Source of the DNA: Cyanidioschyzon merolae
Lineage: Eukaryota
Strand: one strand, 5' to 3'
Assembly (NCBI GenBank): GCA_000091205.1
Contig: AP006490.2
DNA length: 64,000 nt
Shown here: one piece after another, positions 24,401-62,120 of the stretch
Layout: every line of letters begins with the position of its first letter
Position numbering within the stretch: position 1 is the first letter of the stretch
The notes under the pieces: generated by a model
The model's database searches: none
What the model saw: the letters and a program-made list of their open reading frames with translations, nothing else
What the model was told of the DNA's origin: nothing
Program-made: the position numbers and the translations under genes

Positions 24401-26189
24401 ATCGAGAGTGTCCCTGTTGTCTCGTCTTCTGGGGTCACCAGTATCATCCACTACGCAGGGATACCGTCGATGCCAGGTGTTTTGCGGTTGCTTGAGCATA
24501 GCACGGTCCGAACAGATTCAGGCCAGAAGATTGGGTCGTTCCATTCCGGTACCGGGTCGAGGCGCGGTAGTTGTGCAGCATATCGGTGCCAATAGATTCT
24601 GTCCTGGCAGTGCCCAGTTGCGTCTTCATGCAGCTCTGTCCAGTGGTCTGTGCAGGCCTCATTCACTGAGGCACTCTCCGTCCTCAGCGCCTCCTTTTAA
24701 CAGTTGGTGTGAGCCCCAGGCACTTTTTTGGTGGGTCCAGTCTCGATCGAATATAGCGCCAGGTCTCATTCTCGTTGGTGCTCTCTAGCATAGATTTCGC
24801 CAGGGAGGCGATTTTGCGGTTTCGATCCTCTCGTTTGTCTTCTCTGGGAAGTTTCTTCTTTCTTTTGATAGCATCCTCATGTTCCGCCTGTAGCGCCGGT
24901 AGCGCTGCCTTCGGTTCCTCTTCTCCGGCGTTGGCATGTATGGCGGTGCGGTTGACGATCTTGTTGAGTCGGTGGCATTCATCATTCCGAGTTTTGGTAC
25001 GTCGTTTCAAGAACTGAGGTTTGCAACTGTTGTGTTCTGGTCCAAGCAGTCCCAGCTCTCTGGCAATCTTCTGATTCCCATCTACAAACTCGCGTCCTAG
25101 TTGGTCTCAAAATCTGCATGCACGGCTTTTCGGATCTACAGCGCTGTGAGTAAGTGACTGGGTTTGGCGACGGCTTTCTTGGGTTCCCGCTGGGGCACTC
25201 TTTCAGGGGATCACTCATGATGGGTTCGTTCGGGAGTTCTTCTCTCTATTCTTCTGTTTTTTCTTGTTGGTCTTCTTCTTCTTCGGGCTCTTTCCTGAGC
25301 TGCTTTCTCTGGATATTTTGCATCTAGGTGGATCATGAGGTTTCTGTGCCTCCTTCTCCGTATCTGGTTGGGTCTCTTTACCTAACGCAGAGTCCTCCAC
25401 TTGTATCAGTTCTTCGTTACAGTACTGGTAATTCGATATCTCGTCGTCTAGTATCGAGGCTGTCCCACAAATATTCCATGATGCGAAACTTATCGAGTCG
25501 TGGCGCGTAAGGGAATAGGAGTAACGCTGCGGTGCTCCAGAGATACGTCGTCGATTTAGGTGCACCCTCGACGAGGTGTGTGAACGCACATGCCACAAGC
25601 GCCTCCCGCATTCCAGTCGTTCATTGAGTGCTTGGCGCAGCGCTAGCATAGAATCAGAAGTACTCTAGTCAAGGTCGATTCGAATGCGACCGTTACGCTG
25701 CCGGACGCGTGAAGCTACCCGCAACCACAGGGGATACTCTATGAACCACCCTTTCAGCAGCTTCGTGTCCGCTCCCCAAATACATAGGCGGGCAAGTCGC
25801 TTATTCCAGCTTCGACCGCGAACATGCTGCCAGCCGTCTTCCAAAATATCCGCCGAGATTGTTTCCAAAGTTGAGGTAGGTACCCATGGTAGGTGGTAAA
25901 ACGGAGCCCGAGTTCGAGGATGGATCTAGGATTTGCGCCCGAACCTGCAGCGTTATTTCGAGAGCAGCGGATAACTACTCAGAATTCTCGTCAATATTTT
26001 CTGCTGCTACTGCCTCCGCCCCTCCGTTCGTTGCGGTCAAGGTCCGTGTCGTGGGCTCCCTTCGTTGTCGCACGAACACCACGGTTTAACCCACTTTCAG
26101 AGCTTCTGCGGAAAAACTGGACCCCTTAGGCGGGCGTGATGTGTAGAGCTTTAAGATAGTTGGTCTTTAATAAATAGTTTGCGACTAGT

Positions 26190-28950
26190 TTGCATTGCGC
26201 TCGGTGAGCACGCCTGGGAGATCCGGCAGGCATGAGACACGACGCACATGTTGCCGTTGAAGGGGAACGTGATCCTGATCTCTAGCATGTAGATCTAATG
26301 TAAAAGTTGTAATTTCTTTAACTTCATAGCCAAGTACAGTTTTTCAGTTCATTTTTGTTTCAAACCTCAAGTAAAAATATTCAATTGATTTTTAGCAGTA
26401 TATAATAGAAGCGTTCAAAGAGCGTCCTTTTTCACAAAACAAAAAAGGAAAGTCATGAAAAAGCAAGTTCACGATTCTAGAGGCCCAGGGTCGCCGGCTG
26501 CCAGAAAAAAACAAAAAACAGTGCCGAGTCCAGAAGAAAAGGAAGAGAAGAAGGACCGAAAGGGGAGGTCGTACGTCGAAGGCGGCAAGATAGACGGCTG
26601 TACGACGAGATGGTGGTGAAAACCTTTCTTCTTGGACATATCAAGGATCCCTACAGAGAAAAGTTGCGAGACGCTATCAAAAAACGTGTCGACTCATACT
26701 CCAAGAGTATTGTCAAGGCGTCGTCAGGACTGATGCATTTGGCGAGGGAGATGTATCGCGACGTGACGGACATGGAAACGGTCGAGATTCCAGACGAGTT
26801 CTTCGACAAGACCTTTATTCGTCAGCTGATGCTTGGTACAGAGGAAACGCGGAAGGAAAATGAGCGGGTTCACGCTCTTCACGAAAACTTCGCGGAATTC
26901 CGCTTCGAGAGTAATCGATACAGAGGTGATCGGGATATTTAGACATACGGAGCGAAAACGCACATCACGAGTCTGAAGTACCATTTGACAGTGAACCTCG
27001 AACGTTTCATGATACGCGCCGTGGTTGCACTCTACCCGGGCATCTCTCGCAAAGGAATATGGGCGATTATCAATGGCATCACGAAAGATCGTAAGCATGA
27101 AGATGAGATCGAATGCGTCGACAAGCAGGCGTCAAACGAGGGCACGAATGAGGATTCTGTAATCCGTGCGGCTAAACAAGAGCATCGTGCGGTACTGGGG
27201 CTGGCGAATCCAACAGACAAGATATCGGAGTTGAAAAAAGAAAGATATTATCGCCTCGTCCTGCTCTATTTCGTGTTTCTGGACCGAGAGCTCGAACGCA
27301 AAGCAGAGATGAAGCTGAGCGAAGAGATAAATGAAGAGTGGGAGAGACGGAAGGCTGTCCTAATGGGGAAGCGCTTCAACGTGGTTCCAATGTCAAATAT
27401 CAAGTCACATTTTGTGACGATCGACTCCAGAGTCCTTTATGGCATCATGAAGGAGATCAGTCCGGAGTTCGATGTTAGCAGGGAGGAGTTCACCAGCGGA
27501 AACCGGCAGACATGCTGGAAGAGTATCTTCGATTTCAAACGTCTCAAAGTCAGCAAACGAAAGGTATTCACTGGGATGATCGAGACCGATGGAGTAGCCT
27601 TGTGTGTACACTATCGGCGATTGAAGAAAGATCGTCCAGTTCCGCCCTCGGCTGCGCCTGTGACGAAGGATGCAGAAAACAAAGAGGAAGATCCTGCGAC
27701 GCAGGAGGTGGAGGATAACGACATTGTCGTTGACGTGACGAAGGATGAAGATGAGAAGGTGACGGATCCTGCGACACAGGAGGTGCAAGATAACGACCAT
27801 GTCGTTGATGCGGCGAAGCATGAAGATGAGAAGGAGGAGGATACCGCGACGCAGAAAGTGCAGGATAACGACTTTGTCGTTGACGTGGCGCAGCATGAAG
27901 ATGAGAAGGAGGCGGATCCTGCGGTGCAGAAAGTGCAAGATAACGGCTTTGTTGCTGGCGCGGACCCCGGGAATACGAATATCATCACCATCGCAGCACC
28001 GAGGCGTGCGGAAGATGGTACTGACGGTTCCTTGCGTCAGAAAGACTTGCGTCTTTTGAGGTTCTCGAGAGCAAGATACTATCGAGAATCGGGAATCATG
28101 AATGCGAGGAAGAAAATTCCTGCATGGAATGCAGGAATGAAGGATCACCTGGAAGCTTTGAGCGAGGTGACGAGCCGAGGAGCAGACTTTCAAGCTTTTC
28201 GGAAATTCATGGAAGTTCGCATTGCGCGTTGGCATGCACTGTGGGAGGAGTATACCAAGCCTCTGTGGGCTCGTCTGCGAATGAGTCTATACGGCGGGAG
28301 GCAGCGCGCGCTCGCGAACTTTTTCAATGAGTTGAGCGCACTCAAAGAGGATGAGAGTCAGAGGCTCGTAGTAGCATACGGAGCAGGGCGCTGGAAGACC
28401 CAAAAAGGGACTACGCCAGCTCCAACGACAAGAACTTACAAGGAGTGTGCAAGGCGTTTTGTTACGATACCTGTACATGAGTTTCGAACGTCCTATACAC
28501 ACCATGAACTGGGGTGTACACTTCAGAGGGTCGAGATGGAAAAGTGCCAACGGGGTCCTGAGGAAATAGGAAAGCACGGAGAGGTGACTGAGCAGCAAAT
28601 GGAAAGGAGGGCGAAAGTGCGAGGGCTACTTGCATTAGCAAATACAACCACTGATGGCAAGGAACGTATGGAGTTTGTGAATCGTGACCTTAATGCCGCT
28701 ATCAATATAAGGTGATGTGCGGTGCTCGAGAGCAGATCTCCAGAGTCGACAAAAGAAAACGTTATTGGCCAGCCTCTAAAAGTTGAACTATATGAGAAAC
28801 AATTGGAAGCAGTGGCAGGTGGCCGCTCCAAAAAGACTGGCAGCCATCAGCACGTCAGTTGGAGATGTCTAGCCTAGGGCGCGGTTGCCGCCACTACTGT
28901 ACCACAGGCAGCAACGTTTTTCTTTTGAAAGACGTTTGTTTCCAGGGGTA
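26190..28950 (+). mobile_element. Fanzor/TnpB-like (IS605 OrfB-type) element, copy A, about 2.75 kb
   Basis: Left end defined by alignment with copy D ('GCATYGCGCTCGGTGAGC...ATGAGACACGACGC...'), right end by shared '...GCAGCAACGTTTTTCTTTTGAAAG...'; AT-rich 5' leader; single nuclease ORF; lower GC than flanks. Confidence 0.6.
26610..28715 (+). pseudogene. Fanzor/TnpB-like RuvC nuclease gene, copy A (one in-frame stop at about 26943, N-terminal ATG lost)
   Basis: RuvC-I '[16 protein letters not shown]'; 'QRLVVAYGAGRWK'; degenerate Zn finger 'CARRFVTIPVHEFRTSYTHHELGCTLQ...EKCQ'; RuvC-III 'ERMEFVNRDLNAAINIR'; four about 23-aa acidic tandem repeats before RuvC-I. Confidence 0.6.
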
Positions 28951-29146
28951 CGCTCTCGTACACCACCGTTCAGTACAGTGCAGTGCAGTGCAGTTTGGTA
29001 CAGAGTACTGCTCATCAAGTGAACACAAGGTCTAGCTACGCTCTTCGTGCACAGGCACTACGCAGAGCTACCGAAGAAAGTGTAGGAACCCTGTACAGAC
29101 TCAGAGCGCTGGAAGAGAGAAAAGGCTCTGACACGTAGTCGGCAAT

Positions 29147-31003
29147 ATGCTCGTGAAGGCTCCGCTTCCGACTGCTGAGGAGCTGCCGCAGGCCAAGGGC
29201 GCAGCGCACACGGTTGGGAGCAGCACGCCCACCGATGTGCAGGATACAGACCGTGCACTGGACCTGGAGAACCTGAACCTGGACTCCAACACGGAAGTGT
29301 CTCTGATAGCCGCGGACTTGCCCCCAGAAAGCGACGAGGGTAACACGGAGTACAAGCGGCAGCTGGTGCAGCCGTCACCCCAACGTTTCGCAGAGCTGGT
29401 GACACAACTCAAGTACCGCATGGCAGCGGGGCACGGGGAAGCTATGTACCAGCTAGGGTACGACGATGACGGACGCGCACGTGGTGTTCCAGAGGACGTT
29501 TTGGAGGCCTCAATTGAGACCGTGGAACGCATGGCTGCAGAGCTCCGAGCAGACGCCACCGTGTGGCGACGGGCTCGCGGACGCGACGGCTGGGTCGCAC
29601 AGCTGCTCATTCGAGCGCGACCGCGAAGCTGCGAAGAGTTTACGGATACTCGTATTTGTGTATCTGGCAATGTGGACGCGGGCAAGTCCTCTCTTCTCGG
29701 TGTATTGTGCGGAACCGGCCAACTCGATAACGGACGAGGTCTGGCACGAGCGCAGGTCCTGACACATAAACACGAGCTGGAGAGCGGGCGCACCTCGGCG
29801 ATTAGCATGCAGCTCATGGGATTCGACAGCGCCGGTCATGTGGTGAACTACACGAACGTTACCACGAATCGCCAGCTATCCTGGGCTGAGATCGTCACAA
29901 ATTCATCCAAACTAATCACGTTTTGTGATCTCGCCGGGCACGAAAAGTACCTCAAAACGACAATGTTCGGCCTAACGGCACATGCACCAGACTATTGTAT
30001 GATGGTCGTTGCCTTGAATCAAGGCGTGCTGCGAATGACCCAGGAACACTTTGCTATAGCACTTGCGCTCAAGATTCCAGTTTTTGTTGTTTTCTCCAAG
30101 AGTGACCTGGCACCTGCCAACGTTGCCGAGCATACCATCAGCGTCATGACGCGTATGCTCAAGTCGAGCGGTGCTCGCAAAATCCCCGTCCTGGTGAACT
30201 CCCTGGATGAGGTGAGCATCTGCGCGCGAAATATCCCGAACGACCGCATGGTACCGATGTTTGTGGTCAGCAATGTTACCGGAGCCGGACTCGATCTACT
30301 GCGAGCGTTTCTGAACCTGTTGCCATGGCGTCACGACTGGAACGAGCGGAAGAAGAGCGCTTTTGCCGAGTTCACCGTCGATGATCACTTCAGCGTACCA
30401 GGAGTTGGCACAGTTGTTTCGGGCGTGTGCCTGCGCGGTGTTCTCCAGCAGGGACAGAGCGTTTTTCTGGGACCCGATCGACATGGTCATTTCGCGCGCA
30501 TTGCGATCAAGTCCATCCACTACAAAAGGGTCCCTGTGCAGCGACTATATGCCGGTCAGTCGGGATCGTTGGCGCTCAAGAAAATTCGCCGTGAGCGTGT
30601 TCGCAAAGGCATGGTGGTGCTGAGCACCGCTGGCTTCTCCAACGGAGCCAAGTCGGGGTCGTCACCGGCAGCGTCCGGAAACGGGAATACGCCGACGACG
30701 CCCGTATCTGTCATCGAGTTCGAAGCGGATGTTGCGCTCATGTACCACAGCACGAGCGTCCGGGCGGGCTACCAACCGATCGTTCACTGCAGTACGATCC
30801 GGCAGGCCGCCCAGGTGACCTGGATGGATCGCGACGTGGTGCGCATGGGTGAGCGTGCACGCGCTCAGTTTCGCTTCCTCTACCGCCCTGAATGGCTCCG
30901 GGTCGGTGATCGTTTCTGTTTTCGTGAAGGAAGGACCAAAGGTATTGGTCATGTGACGCGCCTTGTGGAGTGCTGGACTCGTGACCTCATCACGATAAAT
31001 TGA
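29147..31003 (+). CDS. GTPBP1-family translational GTPase
   Basis: 'DEGNTEYKRQL' N-terminal signature of GTPBP1/2; G1 'GNVDAGKSSLLG', G3 'DLAGHEKY', G4 'SKSD'; beta-barrel domains 2/3. Confidence 0.8.
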   Translation: MLVKAPLPTAEELPQAKGAAHTVGSSTPTDVQDTDRALDLENLNLDSNTEVSLIAADLPPESDEGNTEYKRQLVQPSPQRFAELVTQLKYRMAAGHGEAMYQLGYDDDGRARGVPEDVLEASIETVERMAAELRADATVWRRARGRDGWVAQLLIRARPRSCEEFTDTRICVSGNVDAGKSSLLGVLCGTGQLDNGRGLARAQVLTHKHELESGRTSAISMQLMGFDSAGHVVNYTNVTTNRQLSWAEIVTNSSKLITFCDLAGHEKYLKTTMFGLTAHAPDYCMMVVALNQGVLRMTQEHFAIALALKIPVFVVFSKSDLAPANVAEHTISVMTRMLKSSGARKIPVLVNSLDEVSICARNIPNDRMVPMFVVSNVTGAGLDLLRAFLNLLPWRHDWNERKKSAFAEFTVDDHFSVPGVGTVVSGVCLRGVLQQGQSVFLGPDRHGHFARIAIKSIHYKRVPVQRLYAGQSGSLALKKIRRERVRKGMVVLSTAGFSNGAKSGSSPAASGNGNTPTTPVSVIEFEADVALMYHSTSVRAGYQPIVHCSTIRQAAQVTWMDRDVVRMGERARAQFRFLYRPEWLRVGDRFCFREGRTKGIGHVTRLVECWTRDLITIN

Positions 31004-45482: not shown

Positions 45483-45700
45483 TTCCATCAGCGGCAAGAA
45501 ACGGATGGAGTTCGTGAACCAAGACTTCAACGCAGTCATCAAAATCAGACGGTGTGCAGTGCTGAAGAGAAGAGACTCGAGGAACTGACGCAATCCAATT
45601 TTGCGGGGTTACCTTTCAGAGTCGAAGTGTACAACGAGAAACTCAAGCCGATAGCAGCCGGCCGGTCAAACAAGACTGGGAGGCGTCTGCGGGTGCGTAT
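45483..45700 (+). mobile_element. 3'-terminal fragment of Fanzor/TnpB-like element
   Basis: Encodes '...GKKRMEFVNQDFNAVIKIRRCAVL...RVEVYNEKLKPIAAGRSNKTGRRLRV' matching the C-terminus and downstream conserved region ('GCCGGTC.AAA..GGGAGGCGTCTGC') of copies A-D. Confidence 0.5.
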
Positions 45701-54821: not shown

Positions 54822-55353
54822 AACATTCATGTGATATCGATTGCATAAATTGGATATAAAGGCTTGTTGGCGTCCGCTCCCACGCGCAGTTGGACAATCA
54901 TGACTTTAGCGTATATTTATGTATTAAACGGACACACTTCTCTGCATTCCGTTTTGCGGCTCTCCGCATGGGTGTCGATCACGGCTAGGCGAGCCCATTC
55001 CGAGCAACTAGGCGTCAATCGCTGGCGCTGCGACCCACGGACTGATAGGACGCGCTTTAGACAGAATGGCCCATTGTCTTGCTCCTAGCGCGCTGCGTGC
55101 CGCGTCTCCATACGCGTCGGACTCGTCGCGGCAACGTTGCGAAGACCCGTCGCCTCCGCGGCTGTTCGTTTTGTACACGGCAGAGCGGCGACTCGGTCCT
55201 GGACCATGCGCGTGATGCCTGTCGTCGCCCCGCAAAACGGCTGTCTCTCTAAGCGCTACACGTTTGCGCATTGTTTGCGTGTCGGCATGACGCGCAACTG
55301 GCAGAACAGCGCCGTATAGCACTCGCACAGACGCGAGCGTGGACAGAAAAGCA

Positions 55354-55422
55354 GGTACAGGCATAGGTACAGGCATAGGTACAGGCATAGGTACAGGCAT
55401 AGGTACAGGCATAGGTACAGGT
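55354..55422. repeat. 12-bp tandem repeat (GGTACAGGCATA) x about 5.7
   Basis: Direct observation; right palindrome arm has only about 1.5 units (59098-59122, inverted). Confidence 0.9.
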
Positions 55423-55620
55423 GTGGGCTCCAGGTCGGCCCCGGAGAAGGAAGCGTGTGCAAGTACCATGGCGGCTAAAAATCGTTCGCAAAATATCACT
55501 TTATAGGCATCGAGGCTACGCATCAACGCACGGACGATCACTCACTCGCTTTCCATAGGTCGTATCCTTCCTCCATTGCATCCGGTCTTCCTTACATCAA
55601 GGCTTTCACCGCTCTCCGCT

Positions 55621-55914
55621 TTAGTTCCCCTGGAACTTTTCCTTGGTGGCATCTGCTGCGTGCTCTATTCCTTTCTTCGCAGACTGACCGGTTTCCTTCA
55701 GGTGATCCACTGCATCACCCGCCTTGTCTTGAGCTTTCTCCTGTGCGGACTTTTGCCCGGTGAGATCACGGAACTTGTCAGAGATCGTCTCCTTCGCCGA
55801 TGAAAACGCACCAGTGACAGACTCTTTCGCAGAATCCAAAGCGCCACCCGCTTTCTTCTCCGTATCTTTGAGAGCCGACTGTGCTGAGCTTGTATCTTGA
55901 GCTCCGGAAGACAT
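55621..55914 (-). CDS. small hydrophilic LEA/CsbD-like protein (97 aa)
   Basis: 'MSSGAQDTSSAQSALKDTEKKAGGALDSAKESVTGAFSSAKETISDKFRDLTGQKSAQEKAQDKAGDAVDHLKETGQSAKKGIEHAADATKEKFQGN'; paralog at 58606-58899. Confidence 0.5.
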   Translation of the reverse strand: MSSGAQDTSSAQSALKDTEKKAGGALDSAKESVTGAFSSAKETISDKFRDLTGQKSAQEKAQDKAGDAVDHLKETGQSAKKGIEHAADATKEKFQGN

Positions 55915-56019
55915 ATCACAATTTATAATGCTTTCGTAAACTCGAAAAATGCATATGCAAATGAGGTACCACGGCGCGCGCGGTGGCCGCACAGCCACAA
56001 ACACAGGAGATTTTACCGC

Positions 56020-57366
56020 AACAGGACCCGCACGCACCGCAGTTTGAAAGTCGAACGACGGCGGTGTACAGTAGCGGCGAACGATGCGCCCTAGACGACG
56101 TCTCCAACTGAGGTGCAGACGCCTCCCGGCCTTTTTGGACCGGCCACCCGCTACTGCTTCCAACTTTTTCTCAAATAATTCCACTTTGGGAGGTTGTCCA
56201 ATAACGTTCTCTCGTGGCAACTCTGGAGGTCTGCTCTCGAGCACCGCACATGTCGTTATCTTGATAGCGGCGTTAAAGTCTCGGTTCACAAACTCCATAC
56301 GTTCCGTGCCATCATTGGTTGTACTTACTAATGCAAGCAGTCCCCGAACTTTCGCCCTCCTTTCCATTTGCGCTTCCGTCAGCGGTCCGTACTTTGCTAT
56401 TCCCTCAGGGCTGCTCCGACACTTTTCTATCTCGACACTTTGAAGTGTACACCCCAGTTCATGGTGTGTATACGATGTTCGGAACTCATCTATCGATATC
56501 GTAACAAAACGTCGTGCACACTCTATGTACGTTCTCGTCGTTAGAGCTGGTGTACACCTTTTTTGGGTCTTCCAGCGCCCTGATCCGTACGCTACTACCA
56601 GCCTTTGGCTCTCGTCCTCCTTCAGGGCGTTCAACTCATTGAAAAAGTTCGCGAGCACGCGCTGCCTCCCACCGTATAGACTCATTCGCAGACGAGCCCA
56701 CCGGGGCTTTGTATACTCCTCCCGTAGCGCCTCCCGATGAGGAACACGAACTTCCATGACTTTCCGAGAAGCTTGAAAGTGTGCTCCGCGGCCCGTCACC
56801 TCGCTCAAAGCTTCCAGGTGATCCTTCATTCCTGCATCCCATGCAGGAATTTTCTTCCTCGCATTCATGACTCCCGATTCTCGATAGTATCTTGCTCTCG
56901 GGAACCTCAAAAGACGCATGTCTTTCTGACGCAAGGAACCGTCAGTACTATCTTCCGCACGCTACGCTGCGCGATGGTTATGATACTCGTATTCTCAGGG
57001 TCCGCGCCAACGACAAAGCCGTTATCTTGCACTTTCTGCACCGCAGGATCCGCCTCCTTCTCATCTTCATGCTGCACCACGTCAACGACAAAGTCGTTAT
57101 CCTGCACTTTCTGCGTCGCGGTACCCGCCTCCTTCTCATCTTCTTGCTGCGCCACGTCAACGACAAAGTAGTTATCCTGCACTTCCTGTGTGGCAGGATC
57201 CGCCTCTTTGTTTTCTGCATCCTTCGTCACGGGCGGAGCCGAGGGCGGAACTGGCCGATCTGTCTTCAACCGCCGATAGTGTACACACAAGGCTACTCCA
57301 TCGGTTTCGATCATCCCAGTGAACAACTTTTGTTTGCTGACTTTGAGCCGTTCGAAACTGAAGATA
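56020..57366 (-). pseudogene. Fanzor/TnpB-like nuclease element, copy B (5'-truncated; 3' boundary approximate)
   Basis: Encodes from '[22 protein letters not shown]' through RuvC-I 'VVGADPENTSIITIA', 'LVVAYGSGRWK', Zn finger and 'FVNRDFNAAIKI'; no stop before downstream LEA-like ORF. Confidence 0.55.
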
Positions 57367-58570
57367 TTCTTCGTTGGGATGATCGAAACCGATGGAGCAG
57401 CCTTGTGTGTACACTATCGGCGGTTTCAGGCGGATCATCCAGCTCCGTCTTCGACTTCGCCGGGACGGAGCATGAAGCGAAGAAAGAGGCGGATCGTGCC
57501 ACGCAGAAAGTGCAGGATAAAGAATTTCCCATTGACGCTACGAAGCATGAAGATGAGATGGAGGCGGATACCGCGACGCAGGAGATGCAGGATAACGACT
57601 TTGTCGTTGGCGCGGACCCTTGGAACACGAATATCATTGGCATGGCTGTACCCAAGCGTGCGGAAGATGGTATCAACGACAGCCCATTTCAGAGAGACAT
57701 GCGTCTGTTGAGATTCTCGAGAGCAAGATACTACCTAGAATTGGGAATCATGAATGCAAGGAAGGAAATTGAGGCATGGAATGCGGAAGTGAAAGAGCAT
57801 CAGGAAGCTTTGAGCGAGGTGACAAGCCGAGGAGCGGGCTTTCAAGCTTTTCTGAAATTCATGGAAGTTCGCATTGCGCACTGGGATGCATTGTGGGAGG
57901 AGTATACAAAGCCCCGGTGGGCTCGTTTGCAAATGAATCTATACGTTGGGAAGCAGCGGGCCTTCGCGAGTTTTTTCAATCAGTTGAGTGCCCTGAAGGA
58001 GGATGAAAATCAGAGGCTCGTAGTAGCGTATAGAGCAGGGCGCTGGGCGCCCAAGAAAGGCACTACGCCAGCTCCAACGACGGGGGCGTACAAGGAGTGC
58101 GCACGGCGTTTCGTCGCGATACCGATAGATGAGTTCCGTTCGTCCTATACACTCCATGAACTGGGGTGTACACTTCAGAGAGTGGAGATGGAAAAGTGCC
58201 AACGGAGCCCTGAGGAAATAGCAAAGTACGGACCTCTGACGGAAGAGCAAATGGAAAGGAGGGCGAAACTTCGGGGGCTACTTGCATTAGTAAGTACAAC
58301 CAGTGATGGCAAGGAACGTATGGAGTTTTTAAACCGAGACTTTAACGTCGCTATCAATTTAAGGAGATGTGCGGTGCTGGAGACGAGACCTCCAGAGCTG
58401 ACAAGAGAGAACTTTGTTGGACAACCGCCCAAAGTAGAACTATATGAGAAAATATGGAATCAGTAGTAGGTGGCCGGTCCAAAAAGGCTGGGAGGCGTCT
58501 GCACGTCAGTGGGAGATGTTTCGTCTAGGGCGCGTGCTTCGCCACTATTGTACACCGTTGGCGTCGTTCG
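57366..58570 (+). pseudogene. Fanzor/TnpB-like nuclease element, copy C (5'-truncated; 3' boundary approximate)
   Basis: '[17 protein letters not shown]' ... 'VVGADPWNTNIIGMA' ... 'LVVAYRAGRWA' ... 'EFLNRDFNVAINLR'; stop at 58466. Confidence 0.55.
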
Positions 58571-58605
58571 AGTGCGAAAGGTGTTCCCTTAGCGTCGCAG
58601 TGACA

Positions 58606-58899
58606 ATGTCTTCTGGGTCGCAGGATACCTCTTCTGGTCAATCAGTTCTCAAAGATGCCGAGGCGAAGGTAGGCAGTGCATGGGAATCCACGAAGGAGTC
58701 AGTTTCTGAAGCGTTCACTTCGGCCAAGGAGACTATCTCTGACAAGTATCGTGATCTCACCGGCCAAAAGTCCGCGCAGGAGAAAGCCCAAGACAAGGCG
58801 AGCGAGGCGGTGGATCACCTAAAGGAAACCGGTCAGTCCGCGAAGGAGAGTTTGCAGCACGCTGCAGATGCAGCCTCGGAAAAGTTAAAGGACGGCTAA
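58606..58899 (+). CDS. small hydrophilic LEA/CsbD-like protein (97 aa)
   Basis: ATG at 58606; about 80% identical to 55621-55914 product. Confidence 0.5.
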   Translation: MSSGSQDTSSGQSVLKDAEAKVGSAWESTKESVSEAFTSAKETISDKYRDLTGQKSAQEKAQDKASEAVDHLKETGQSAKESLQHAADAASEKLKDG

Positions 58900-59417
58900 C
58901 GGAGAGAGCGTAGAAAGACTTGAGTGAAGGATGCACGGAAGTAAAACAGGAAGGATACGACCTATGGACAGCGAGTGAGTGATCGTCCGTGCGTTGATGC
59001 GTAGCCTCGATGCCTATAAAGTGATGTTTTGCGAACGATTTTTAGCCGCCATGGTACTTGCACACGCGTCCCGCTCCGGGGCCGACCCGCAGCCCACACC
59101 TGTACCTATGCCTGTACCTGCTTTCCTGTCCACGCCCGCGTCTGTGTGAGTGCTATACGGCGCTGTTCTGCCAGTTGCGCGTCATGCCGACACCCAAACA
59201 ATGCGCAAACGTATAGCGCTTATAGAGAGATAGTTGTTCCGCGGGGCGAGCGCCCGCAATCGCAGTCGAGGGCACAATCGACTCGATCGCTGCCGCACGG
59301 GGCGCGACGCATCGCACGCTGTGGTGCAGCGCAGCGCGTACCGGCCTCTGGAAGCAAGTTGTGCGCAGCAGCGATCTGAGGCCTTTATCCATCGGTGCAG
59401 CGTCTCGCGCGGTGCAC

Positions 59418-62120
59418 GCATCGCGCTCGGTGAGCGTACCCGGGAGATCAGGCAGATATGAGACACGACGCGCATGTCGCCGCTGAAGGGAAACGCGATC
59501 CTGACCATTCGTTGACGTGTTGTTCTAACGTAAAACTTGTATTTGCATTGGAATCGTAACAGAATATATTGTTTCATCTCAGTCGTGTTTCAACCTTCAA
59601 GTAAAAATACTCGAGCGCTTTTTCGCGGTTTAGAGCAGAGACGTTAATAGTGCGTTCTAAATCAAAAAAAAAAAACTAAAAAAGGAAAGTTCTGGACAGC
59701 GAAGTGGAGGACCCTGGAGGGTCAGTATCGCTGGCAGGCGAGAAAAAAGGAGCAAAAGAGCCAAACATAGAAGAACGAGACAAGACGAAGAAGCAGACGG
59801 GGGAGGTCCTACGTCAATGGCTGCAAGAAAGACGACAGTACGACGAGATGGAGGTGAAAACCTGTCTTCTCGGCTATAGCAAGGATTCGTAGAAGAAAAA
59901 ATTGCGAGAGTCCATCAGAAACTGTGACGAGTCGGACTCCATGAGTTTTCGTAAGACTTCTTTAGGAATGATGCATCTAGCGAGGGAGATGTATCGCGAC
60001 GTGACGCACATGGAAACAGTCGATGTTCCAGAAAAATTTTGCAACAGGAACTTTATTCTTCACCTGATGCTTGGTACAGGGGAAACATCGAGGAGAAATG
60101 AGCGGGTTCACGCCCTCCACGAAAACTTCGCGGAATTCCGCTTCGAGGGTACTCGGTACAGAGGTGACTCGAATATTTACATATACGGGGCGATGAAGTA
60201 CCTCACGAATCTGAAGAACCATTTGACAGTGAACCTTGAACGTTTCATGAGACGCTCGGTGTTTGCACTCTACCGGGGCATCTCTCGCACAGGAATACGG
60301 GCGATTACCAATGGCATCACCAACGAGCACCAGAATGAAGATGAAGTCGAATTTGTCGACAAGAAGGCGTCAAACGAGCGCACGAATGAAGCCTCTGTAA
60401 TCCGTGCGGTTATACAAGAGCGCCGTGCAATCTTGGGGTTGGCGGATCCAATAGACAAGATACCAGAGTTGAAAAAAAATATAAGGAAAGACACTATCGC
60501 CTCATCCTGCGATATTTCGTGTTTTTGCACCGAGAGCCCGAACGCAGTGCGCAGATGAAGCCGAGTGAGGAAAAAATATGAAGAGTGGGAGAGACGGAAA
60601 GCTTTCCTAATGGGGAAGCGCTTCAACGTCGTTCCAATGTGCAGCATCAAGTCACATTTTGTGACTGTCGACCCAACGTACGTTACAGCAAATTGAAGGA
60701 GATCTGTCCGGAGTTCAATGTAAGGAAGACAGAGTTCGCCGGTGAAAACCGGGAGACGTACTGGAAGAACATCTTCAATTTCAAACGGCTCAAAGTCAGC
60801 AAACAAAAGTTGTTCACTGGGATGATCGAAACCGATGGAGTAGCCTTGTGTGTACACTATCGGCGGTTGAAGACAGATCGGCCAGTTCCGCCCTCGGCTC
60901 CGCCCGTGACGAAGGATGCAGAAAACAAAGAGGCGGATCCTGCCACACAGGAAGTGCAGGATAACGACCTTGTCTTGACGTGGAGCAGCATGAAGATGAG
61001 AAGGAGGCGGATACCGCGACGCAGAAAGTGCAGGATAACGACTTTGTCGTTGACGTGGTGCAGCATGAAGATGAGAAGGAGGCGGATCCTGCGGTGCAGA
61101 AAGTGCAAGATAACGGCTTTGTTGCTGGCGCGGACCCCGGGAATACGAATATCATCACCATCGCAGCACCGAGGCGTGCGGAAGATGGTACTGACGGTTC
61201 CTTGCGTCAGAAAGACATGGGTCTTTTGAGGTTCCGGAGAGCAAGATACTATCGAGAATCGGGAGTCATGAATGCGAGGAAGAAAATTCCTGCATGGGAT
61301 GCAGGAATGAAGGATCACCTGGAAGCTTTGAGCGAGGTGACGGGCCGCGGAGCACACTTTCAAGCTTCTCGGAAAGTCATGGAAGTTCGTGTTCCTCATC
61401 GGGAGGCGCTACGGGAGGAGTATACAAAGCCCCGGTGGGCTCGTCTGCGAATGAGTCTATACGGTGGGAGGCAGCGCGTGCTCGCGAACTTTTTCAATGA
61501 GTTGAACGCCCTGAAGGAGGACGAGAGCCAAAGGCTGGTAGTAGCGTACGGATCAGGGCGCTGGAAGACCCAAAAAAGGTGTACACCAGCTCTAACGACG
61601 AGAACGTACATAGAGTGTGCACGACGTTTTGTTACGATATCGATAGATGAGTTCCGAACATCGTATACACACCATGAACTGGGGTGTACACTTCAAAGTG
61701 TCGAGATAGAAAAGTGCCAGAGCAGCCCTGAGGGAATAGCAAAGTACGGACCGCTGACGGAAGCGCAAATGGAAAGGAGGGCGAAAGTTCGGGGACTGCT
61801 TGCATTAGTAAGTACAACCAATGATGGCACGGAACGTATGGAGTTTGTGAACCGAGACTTTAACGCCGCTATCAAGATAACGACATGTGCGGTGCTCGAG
61901 AGCAGACCTCCAGAGTTGCCACGAGAGAACGTTATTGGACAACCTCCCAAAGTGGAGTTATTTGAGAAAAAGTTGGAGGCAGTAGCGGGTGGCCGGTCCA
62001 AAAAGGCCGGGAGGCGTCTGCACCTCAGTTGGAGACGTCGTCTAGGGCGCATCGTTCGCCGCTACTGAACCACTGGCGGCAGCGTTTTTCTTTTGAAAAG
62101 CGTTTGCTGCTCGGGGTGCT
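59418..62120 (+). mobile_element. Fanzor/TnpB-like element, copy D, about 2.7 kb
   Basis: Both ends align with copy A; right end 12 bp upstream of the CysRS ATG. Confidence 0.6.
59704..62068 (+). pseudogene. Fanzor/TnpB-like RuvC nuclease gene, copy D (at least 3 frameshifts/stops; GTG at 59704 in ORF track)
   Basis: Fragments 59704-59892, 59902-60558, 60585-61229, 60980-62068 are co-linear with copy A; retains '[16 protein letters not shown]', 'LVVAYGSGRWK', 'FVNRDFNAAIKI'; 1-nt deletion near 60975 and homopolymer indel near 60480. Confidence 0.6.

Follow-up and report, generated by a model that had tools for sequence, protein, structure and literature searches.

A Fanzor1 omegaRNA is expressed as a small RNA, which is bound by the nuclease and reaches 14-20 nt beyond the element. 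In the Fz1 omegaRNAs described so far, a conserved 7-bp first stem-loop (SL1) and a variable second stem-loop (SL2) precede the guide (PMC11423790). The omegaRNA of ISDra2 TnpB overlaps the 3' end of the ORF, and that of GtFz1 does so to a lesser degree (17 aa). Among the published Fanzor1 families, CMe-1A of Cyanidioschyzon merolae is a ~3-kb element with about 150 genome copies, ~80% identity to the consensus, no terminal inverted repeats (TIRs) and no known TSDs, and Fanzor1 elements are also known as cargo captured by Helitrons (Bao & Jurka 2013, PMC3627910). The 3' hairpins of CMe-1A and any RNA are not described in that paper.

The window analyzed here is a stretch of 64,000 nt, in which a flanking GTPase was 100% identical to a protein of C. 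merolae strain 10D. The repeat at 28690-28950 belongs to a decayed CMe-1A copy, of which it forms the 3' end, and it is an ordinary instance of the known Fanzor1 type. Nothing in it differs from the published family: the organism, the length of ~3 kb, the lack of TIRs and the between-copy identity of ~80% are the same, a 5' part is shared with another repeat in both descriptions, and at least 342 matches in metagenomes agree in scale with the ~150 genome copies. A BLAST search of the window with 28601-29100 as query yielded copy B (61771-62117, plus strand, 82%, E 3e-96), copy C (56365-56066, minus strand, 83%, E 5e-87) and copy D (58253-58553, plus strand, 83%, E 2e-85) besides the query copy A, which is without a ~550-nt 5' region present in fuller copies. 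An earlier sequence-only reading had described a module of about 250 nt alignable in A to D and in a fragment at 45.5 kb. For A to D this holds far beyond chance, whereas the fragment (fragment F; matches at 45493-45573 and 45654-45690, 74-76%) can be aligned only up to the equivalent of ~28850 and does not reach the non-coding end. The sequence string quoted for the module is the form carried by B, C and D; copy A carries a variant. The features are collected in Table 1.

Table 1. Coordinates of the CMe-1A features discussed, numbered from the first base of the window.
Feature	Position	Strand	Basis
Copy A, CMe-1A Fanzor1 element	26192..28950	+	Family from PMC3627910; fold similar to Fanzor1 structures
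Nuclease RuvC-III motif (VNRDLNAAINIR)	28677..28712	+	Translation; in the alignment of distant relatives (A5), conservation of at least 90% for D and N of NRDxNAAxN
Copy-specific nonsense TGA of copy A; family consensus AGA (Arg)	28713..28715	+	Alignments, consensus
C-terminal tail of Fanzor1, ancestrally coding (CAVLE.RPPE.TRENF.GQP.KVELYEKKLEAVVGGRSKK.GRRLHVSWR..)	28716..28874	+	Homologue read-through, dN/dS, codon positions
Natural stop TAG of the family, inside conserved GTCTAGGGCG	28875..28877	+	Lies 105 codons past 28560 in several copies
Hairpin H1, SL1-like: UAGGGCG, variable 7-nt loop, CGCC-A-CUA; 7 bp including the stop codon	28875..28896	+	RNAfold of 50 copies
Conserved tract ACTACTGTAC; shares 4 nt with the 3' side of H1 and runs on into H2	28893..28902	+	Alignment
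Terminal hairpin H2, SL2-like; variant in copy A AACGTTTTTC-TTTT-GAAAGACGTT; element ends at the H2 base	28900..28950	+	Folding, covariance model R1, covariation, strand bias
Unique 3' flank; putative guide segment under the omegaRNA model	28951..28970	+	Downstream 20-mers
Fragment F, pseudogene remnant of the Fanzor1 protein tail, older and with greater divergence	45493..45690	+	BLAST, alignment
Non-coding 3' end, copy C	56030..56096	-	R1 match, 55.1 bits
Non-coding 3' end, copy D	58523..58593	+	R1 match, 53.4 bits
Non-coding 3' end, copy B	62040..62112	+	R1 match, 32.8 bits

In the encoded protein, the motifs GxDPG, DEFRTS and NRDxNAAxNI (NRDLNAAINIR in copy A) supply the D...E...D catalytic triad of RuvC, with D206, E378 and D447 invariant or at least 90% conserved in the alignment of distant relatives (A5). 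The zinc-finger region between RuvC-II and RuvC-III holds only HH..C..x12..C (THHELGC...EKC), compared with the C4 of TNB / OrfB_Zn_ribbon. An AF2 model of the protein (pLDDT 76.7) was matched by Foldseek to 9cey, 8gkh (SpuFz), 9cf1 (PpFz) and 9cer (GtFz) at E 1e-11 to 1e-7 and TM ~0.5, while matches to TnpB, Cas12 and Fanzor2 were far weaker. Pfam gave no match for the window ORFs or their homologues, one distant relative matching PF07282 below the cut-off (E 0.0023), and a profile search against PDB sequences gave none either, so membership in Fanzor1 rests on the fold, the motifs and the 2013 paper. The gene of a distant homologue (P0243) adjoins a DDE_3 (Tc1/mariner-type) transposase, on a contig that ends 32 nt past the gene.

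About two thirds of the 260 bases flagged in the sequence-only reading are, ancestrally, the nuclease's own coding tail. Positions 28690-28877 cover the last part of the RuvC-III motif and, after it, a C-terminal tail of 54 codons, and ten homologues read through the module to ...GRRLHVSWRxLx* with a common TAG stop at 28875-28877. The first third of the tail (RCAVLExRPPELxR) is conserved at the protein level in relatives of 30-40% identity, in which RPxxLxR is at least 90% conserved; the last ~34 residues are basic and predicted to be disordered (AF2 pLDDT <50 at residues 476-509).

The differing ORF ends of the window copies had been taken as a sign that conservation is uncoupled from coding. 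The TGA directly after AAINIR in copy A was confirmed, but two copy labels had been swapped: IWNQ* belongs to the plus-strand copy at 57466-58553 and RIVRRY* to copy B, and the minus-strand copy has no stop at that place, its frame continuing. These ends are independent inactivating mutations, namely the nonsense TGA in A and small deletions in the others (1 nt in D, 2 nt in B and C), and copy A is a pseudogene with a further in-frame TAG at 26940-26942. The argument fails because such stops are pseudogene lesions and the family ORF normally runs through to the TAG. Most CMe-1A copies are pseudogenes, all four in the window included, so any function at this locus would be ancestral. More generally, differing stops among repeat copies signal pseudogene decay rather than non-coding selection.

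By its substitution pattern, the tail evolves as coding sequence, and its conservation is not uncoupled from coding. Across 52 distinct genomic copies, the majority-base frequency per 15-nt bin was 0.83-0.93 in the tail and 0.85-0.94 in the ORF upstream, so that the proposed module is not better conserved than the ORF it was thought to outlast. The dN/dS of the tail was 0.38 and 0.53, compared with 0.19-0.30 in the core, and its variability at codon positions 1/2/3 was 0.107/0.098/0.141. Fragment F differed from the consensus by 0.28/0.21/0.49 at the three positions (Fisher p=0.004). These data bear on the proposal that an omegaRNA scaffold takes up the entire ~250-nt module from ~28690, overlies a variable ORF end and is conserved at nucleotide level independently of coding. 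Overlap of this kind has the ISDra2 precedent and, less so, that of GtFz1, and four-fold-degenerate sites were slightly less variable in the tail (0.152 vs 0.204, one-sided p=0.051), where dS (0.35-0.38) also lay at the low end. However, this dS is inside the range of 0.32-0.75 of 27-codon windows elsewhere in the ORF; with the four-fold result marginal as well, extra synonymous constraint is not claimed. The tail is further joined to the non-coding end by a 7-9-nt complementarity between CAGTAGTRG and CCACTACTG in the linker, with 85% of cells paired; this conserved long-range helix showed no compensatory changes, about 0.7 chance matches are expected by our own estimate, and it was rejected as unproven. 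The full 3' alignment and 28794-28950 gave no more than a 3-5-bp stem in RNAalifold, and the coding tail gave no consensus structure. The coding-type substitutions, the fact that a single point mutation and a pair of small deletions account for the stops, and the retention in fragment F of the protein tail and not of the non-coding end also count against the whole-module proposal, which we consider quite unlikely. In fragment F no recognizable non-coding end was found, and the covariance model R1 had no match there.

The structured RNA or DNA candidate is confined to ~28872-28950. The best candidate is much shorter than the segment originally flagged. The non-coding end comprises the last 70-75 nt (28878-28950), with the first hairpin beginning at the stop codon; R1 matched it in copy A at 28872-28944 (39 bits). 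Its majority-base frequency fell to 0.71-0.76 in parts and to ~0.4, the level of unrelated sequence, past ~28950; the ACTACTGTAC linker sits in its best-conserved bin (0.92). Hairpin H1 was predicted in most of 50 copies with 88.6% of cells paired, and its covariation did not go beyond conservation. The terminal hairpin H2 folded in most of 51 copies (mean z -1.75; z < -2 in 19). Both-side changes occurred at 17 of its pairs compared with 9.4+-1.8 in shuffles (0/500), in an alignment of related sequences fitted to the model, and in the same model-fitted alignment 77% of cells were paired compared with 33-63% when the 3' partner was slid. G.U was the commonest pair at five positions, and the sense strand was the more stable in 42 of 50 copies (p=3.5e-7). 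The existence of the terminal hairpin, its covariation and its strand bias are shown by these data. H2 keeps its structure even where the sequence has changed: two copies (L044, L018) carry unrelated sequence, from which a 15-bp stem is still formed.

An absence of function, with the similarity of the ends being residual identity among young copies, would fit the variability of the non-coding end (0.21-0.25), which is about that of four-fold sites (0.20). Compensatory changes exceeding all shuffles, the same hairpin built from unrelated sequences, the strand bias and the conserved stem arms around a variable loop make this explanation extremely improbable. A search of 28500-29100 against Rfam gave no match at E<=1. 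To our knowledge, Fanzor omegaRNAs are not curated in Rfam, so this result was expected. A bacterial-type promoter and terminator scan, of little relevance to a eukaryote, gave no match, and a loose motif search for 3' ends was dropped for its false positives from an internal coding site.

Taken together, the sequence-only reading is partly supported: the repeat has a TnpB/Fanzor-type 3' end, and a structured, guide-scaffold-like module is probably present at its right end, with an extent of ~28872-28950 and not 28690-28950. We suggest, with a probability of roughly 0.6, that 28690-28950 is the decayed 3' end of CMe-1A, coding up to the TAG and followed by a short hairpin end that is a candidate omegaRNA scaffold with a flank-derived guide. 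The sense transcript of the short end (28878-28950) would be the scaffold RNA of the Fanzor nuclease, which would bind it, with the guide coming from the adjoining unique flank on the pattern of SpuFz1 and PpFz1. These hairpins may in addition act as the right-end signal of the transposon. The placement agrees with this reading, the block at 28875-28950 reaching from the stop codon to the right end with the sense strand favored. So does the layout, in which a second hairpin that varies by covariation and by alternative sequences is followed by copy-specific flank in the putative role of guide. As judged from these comparisons, the predicted layout and size of the 3' end match those of published Fanzor1 omegaRNAs, which have a conserved 7-bp SL1, a variable SL2 and a guide. 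Homology stopped at the hairpin base (~28950) with unique flank directly next to it, and the downstream 20-mers of 49 copies were 25% identical, which is the random level. That the 16-20 nt downstream differ per copy, as had been anticipated, is thus correct, but it would be true of any dispersed repeat.

The terminal hairpins could instead belong to the Fanzor mRNA as ordinary elements of its 3' UTR or transcript end, with a role in stability or termination, as their sense-strand position directly behind the stop codon would allow. Element homology that ends exactly at the hairpin base, the lack of a terminator-like T-run, and a two-stem layout and size matching Fz1 omegaRNAs speak against this, and we regard it as very unlikely. 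Alternatively, they may be DNA-level right-end signals only, used by a transposase supplied in trans in a single-strand or rolling-circle mechanism, with no guide scaffold. The family has neither TIRs nor known TSDs, hairpins lie near both ends (including GCGCTC-NNN-GAGCGC at 26198-26212), 5' extents vary while the 3' end is constant, head-to-tail neighbors are frequent, and the top-strand bias suits ssDNA mechanisms. No transposase ORF was found in or beside the element, however, no conserved CTRR follows the hairpin as it does in a canonical Helitron, and the five mostly G.U positions suit RNA better than DNA; moreover, both roles coexist in TnpB systems, so this possibility, unlikely on its own, is not exclusive of a scaffold. 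A sense-strand bias is also expected for a top-strand ssDNA transposition signal. Two specific element types were considered and rejected. A Helitron-type 3' end has a hairpin 10-12 nt upstream of CTRR, with RepHel in autonomous copies, and neither a conserved CTRR nor a RepHel-type ORF was found nearby; an IS200/IS605-type element would agree with hairpins near both ends, but the element contains no TnpA (Y1) and no second ORF.

The left boundary was mosaic and variable and showed no shared motif. Searches for the left end, TIRs, TSDs and a TAM defined none of them, the TAM because the left end is not definable. Automatic chaining of 5' extents broke at an internal 75-nt tandem repeat, and only the subset of copies reaching reference positions <800 was usable. 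The constant hairpin-capped 3' end, the variable and mosaic 5' extents, the frequent head-to-tail neighbors and the occurrence of solo 105-nt 3' fragments, taken together, raise the doubtful, quite speculative idea that CMe-1A spread by a copy mechanism starting or ending at the terminal hairpin, whether rolling-circle-like, 3'-primed or by Fanzor/omegaRNA-assisted homing beside existing ends. If so, the mobility of this eukaryotic element, which has no transposase, would in fact be determined by the Fanzor right-end RNA or DNA hairpin. If the candidate scaffold is confirmed as an omegaRNA, C. merolae, a genetically tractable and very compact red alga, would have a native RNA-guided nuclease with a defined scaffold, and a TIR-less Fanzor1 family would join the few with known omegaRNA architecture.

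Compared with known systems, the CMe-1A end resembles the 3' ends of Helitron and Helitron2 in its one-strand terminal hairpin with compensatory changes and its lack of TIRs, but differs from Helitrons in having no CTRR terminus, no nearby RepHel gene and homology that ends at the hairpin base. With ISDra2 TnpB and GtFz1 it would share a right-end-derived RNA and a flank-derived guide; scaffold-ORF overlap is substantial in those systems, whereas in CMe-1A the evidence for overlap past the stop codon is marginal. CMe-1A differs from SpuFz1 and PpFz1 in that it has no TIRs, has a far longer second hairpin (19-25 bp), and carries a bulged A and the stop codon in its H1. The protein folds match at E ~1e-11, and, as in the omegaRNAs of SpuFz1 and PpFz1, a short 7-bp first stem-loop, predicted in CMe-1A, is followed by one variable second stem-loop and then by flank, which is the guide in SpuFz1 and PpFz1 and would be so in CMe-1A (Saito 2023, PMC10432273; Xu 2024, PMC11423790).

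As judged from its sequence, the repeat present in the window as copies A to D and the diverged fragment F matches the published description of CMe-1A, the sole Fanzor1 family of Cyanidioschyzon merolae, which is about 3 kb long and without TIRs, with TSDs not determined, has about 150 copies that each share about 80% identity with the consensus, and has 5' 635 bp also found in the repeat TE-N2_CMe (Bao & Jurka 2013, PMC3627910). Copies B, C and D were all 80-87% identical to copy A (BLAST within the window), and stops or frameshifts disrupted every window copy. At least 342 related stretches were found in the metagenome collection, with 52 distinct 3' ends after duplicate removal, and about 550 nt of 5' sequence were present in the fuller copies. 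The gene directly downstream of copy A (29147-31003) matched a C. merolae 10D GTP-binding protein at 100% identity; its next-best matches were from other Cyanidiales (71-82% identity). The contig derives from hot-spring metagenomes.

Window copies of CMe-1A and terminal hairpin of copy A
Feature	Position	Strand	Description
Copy A	26192-28950	+	2.76-kb repeat; flagged module 28690-28950 is its 3' end
Copy B	59418-62117	+	BLAST within window
Copy C	57231-56066	-	BLAST within window
Copy D	57466-58553	+	BLAST within window
Fragment F	45493-45690		diverged piece; BLAST within window
H2 (copy A)	28900-28950	+	long terminal hairpin

Copies C and D are divergently oriented. The sequences flanking them on the 3' side (55400-56040, minus strand; 58606-59120, plus strand) are homologous, with 82% identity over 514 nt, and code for two related small hydrophilic proteins (MSSG.QDTSS.QS.LKD...). 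The arrangement is an old inverted duplication of one insertion plus its flanking gene, and thus C and D do not stem from separate insertion events. An ORF at 55100-55350 (minus strand) contains a PVPM repeat run (PVPMPVPMPVPM...), a short coding microsatellite.

Because searches of Pfam and of PDB sequences with the family protein gave no match, Fanzor1 membership rests on the modelled fold, the catalytic motifs and the 2013 paper (PMC3627910). Profile search returned 1238 distant relatives, and GxDPGRTN, VDEFRTS and NRDxNAAxNIRRCxxxxxRPxxLxR were common to 80 aligned relatives. The AlphaFold2 model generated from the alignment of 80 relatives (pLDDT 76.7, pTM 0.74) had its best PDB matches in the Fanzor1 structures SpuFz, PpFz and GtFz (E 1e-11 to 1e-7), while TnpB, Cas12 and Fanzor2 structures matched far more weakly; the putative zinc finger has an atypical HH..C..C pattern. 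The ORF also contains a 75-nt tandem repeat (27690-27952; 3.5 units, 84% match) coding for acidic units, one of 21 residues, directly before the RuvC-I motif; the number of units varies from copy to copy and among homologues, and disorder is predicted for this segment (pLDDT <50, model residues 125-190). The gene for P0243, a distant homologue from a brine metagenome (L084:541-1449, 42% identity), has a DDE_3 (Tc1/mariner-type) transposase gene as its immediate upstream neighbour, in keeping with literature accounts of Mariner elements capturing Fanzor1.

The sequence-only reading had taken the variable ORF ends as a sign that nucleotide conservation in the module was uncoupled from coding. 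This was contradicted by the homologous proteins, which continue through the module to ...GGRSKKxGRRLHVSWRxLx and the family stop, a TAG at 28875-28877 in copy A, inside GTCTAGGGCG and kept in most copies. The three differing ends in the window are three separate lesions: AGA to TGA in copy A, whose open frame (26985-28715, motifs including NRDLNAAINIR) closes at 28713-28715; a 1-nt deletion in copy D, giving ...YEKIWNQ; and in copies B and C a 2-nt deletion directly 5' of the stop, which skips the TAG and leads to ...RIVRRY. An in-frame TAG at 28746-28748, where other copies have TGG (Trp, ...RPPEWTR...), also occurs in L028, L019, L023, L039, L044, L052, L067, L072 and L080; it may have arisen by repeated mutation or may characterise a subfamily that has been inactivated.

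The tail (28716-28874, the ancestral C-terminal coding part) evolves as coding sequence. Among the 52 distinct copies, variability at codon positions 1/2/3 was 0.107/0.098/0.141 in the tail and 0.078/0.066/0.195 just upstream, and fragment F differed from the family consensus at 0.28/0.21/0.49 of these positions in the tail (Fisher p=0.004). Split into halves, the tail gave dN/dS values of 0.38 (first) and 0.53 (second), compared to 0.19-0.30 in the core. The first third (RCAVLExRPPELxR) was kept in relatives with only 30-40% identity and modelled at high confidence; a basic stretch of ~34 residues, for which disorder is predicted, closes the tail. Tail conservation was no higher than that of the preceding ORF. 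Nucleotide-level signal in the tail was only marginal: four-fold site variability was 0.152 versus 0.204 upstream (one-sided p=0.051), dS (0.35-0.38) lay within the 0.32-0.75 span of 27-codon windows elsewhere in the ORF, and RNAalifold found no shared structure in the tail. CAGTAGTRG (~28809) and CCACTACTG (~28891) are complementary over 7-9 nt; this complementarity is conserved, but was set aside as an unproven pairing, being without compensatory changes and roughly at chance level.

Homology between copies runs 70-75 nt past the stop and then ends, the majority-base frequency falling to ~0.4. The bases directly downstream differed per copy, as guide-like segments would but as is expected also of any dispersed repeat, with 20-mers 25% identical, the random level. 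The non-coding end has three parts. The first hairpin, H1 (UAGGGCG, a variable 7-nt loop, CGCC-A-CUA; 7 bp with one bulged A), contains the stop codon and was predicted in most copies, with 88.6% of cells paired; its covariation was not above conservation. The tract ACTACTGTAC follows, in the non-coding block where conservation is highest (majority frequency 0.92), and then H2. Copies A and B carry ...AACGTTTTTC-TTTT-GAAAGRCGTT..., and C, D and most other copies ...CGTTCGA-CTT-TCGAACG...; both fold, and their difference produces an apparent 40 extra bases common to A and B. In L044 and L018 an unrelated sequence still forms a 15-bp stem.

A covariance model of this end detected 50 instances, including all four window copies. 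In the model-derived alignment, which was fitted to the covariance model and consists of related sequences, both sides changed in 17/23 pairs (9.4+-1.8 in shuffles, 0/500), further pair types numbered 50 (37.4+-2.3, 0/500), and 77% of cells were paired versus 33-63% with the 3' partner slid; G.U was the commonest pair at five positions. The sense strand was more stable than the antisense in 42/50 copies (-16.0 vs -11.5 kcal/mol, p=3.5e-7). H1 and H2 could instead, or in addition, be the right-end DNA signal of a TIR-less element, and the strand bias is compatible with RNA and with top-strand ssDNA alike and does not separate the two.

At the 5' side, the part common to nearly all copies starts with GCGCTC-NNN-GAGCGC, a conserved hairpin whose loop varies (26198-26212 and equivalents in L014-L083); L049 and L065 have another sequence there that is still able to pair (GTGCGCTCG-AGA-CGAGCAC), and at least three unrelated 5' modules lie upstream. 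A separate 280-nt repeat (25904-26185) adjoins copy A and was found again, reversed and at 84-90% identity, in L073, L023, L024 and L033. At L019:935-1041 an isolated 105-nt 3' end lies ~25 nt before a full copy's 5' region, with related arrangements in L047, L035, L083 and L067. Several loci hold two copies head to tail, 3.1-3.9 kb separating their 3' ends, a pattern suggestive of tandem or adjacent insertion.

The proposal of an omegaRNA or right-end scaffold thus held for a Fanzor 3' end with a scaffold-like module at the right end, and failed in its argument and extent; the observation behind it is real but ordinary. The CMe-1A family and the principle are already known, and the two-hairpin end of CMe-1A is absent from the searchable literature. 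Fz1 omegaRNAs have in common a conserved 7-bp first stem-loop, followed in SpuFz1 and PpFz1 by a single, poorly constrained second stem-loop and then the guide (Xu et al., PMC11423790); the GtFz1 omegaRNA overlaps the ORF by only 17 codons. Since the CMe-1A end resembles the SpuFz1 and PpFz1 omegaRNAs in position, size and order (predicted short conserved stem, variable long stem, unique flank), this anatomy and precedent make 28872-28950 the likely omegaRNA scaffold, with the would-be guide from 28951 onward.
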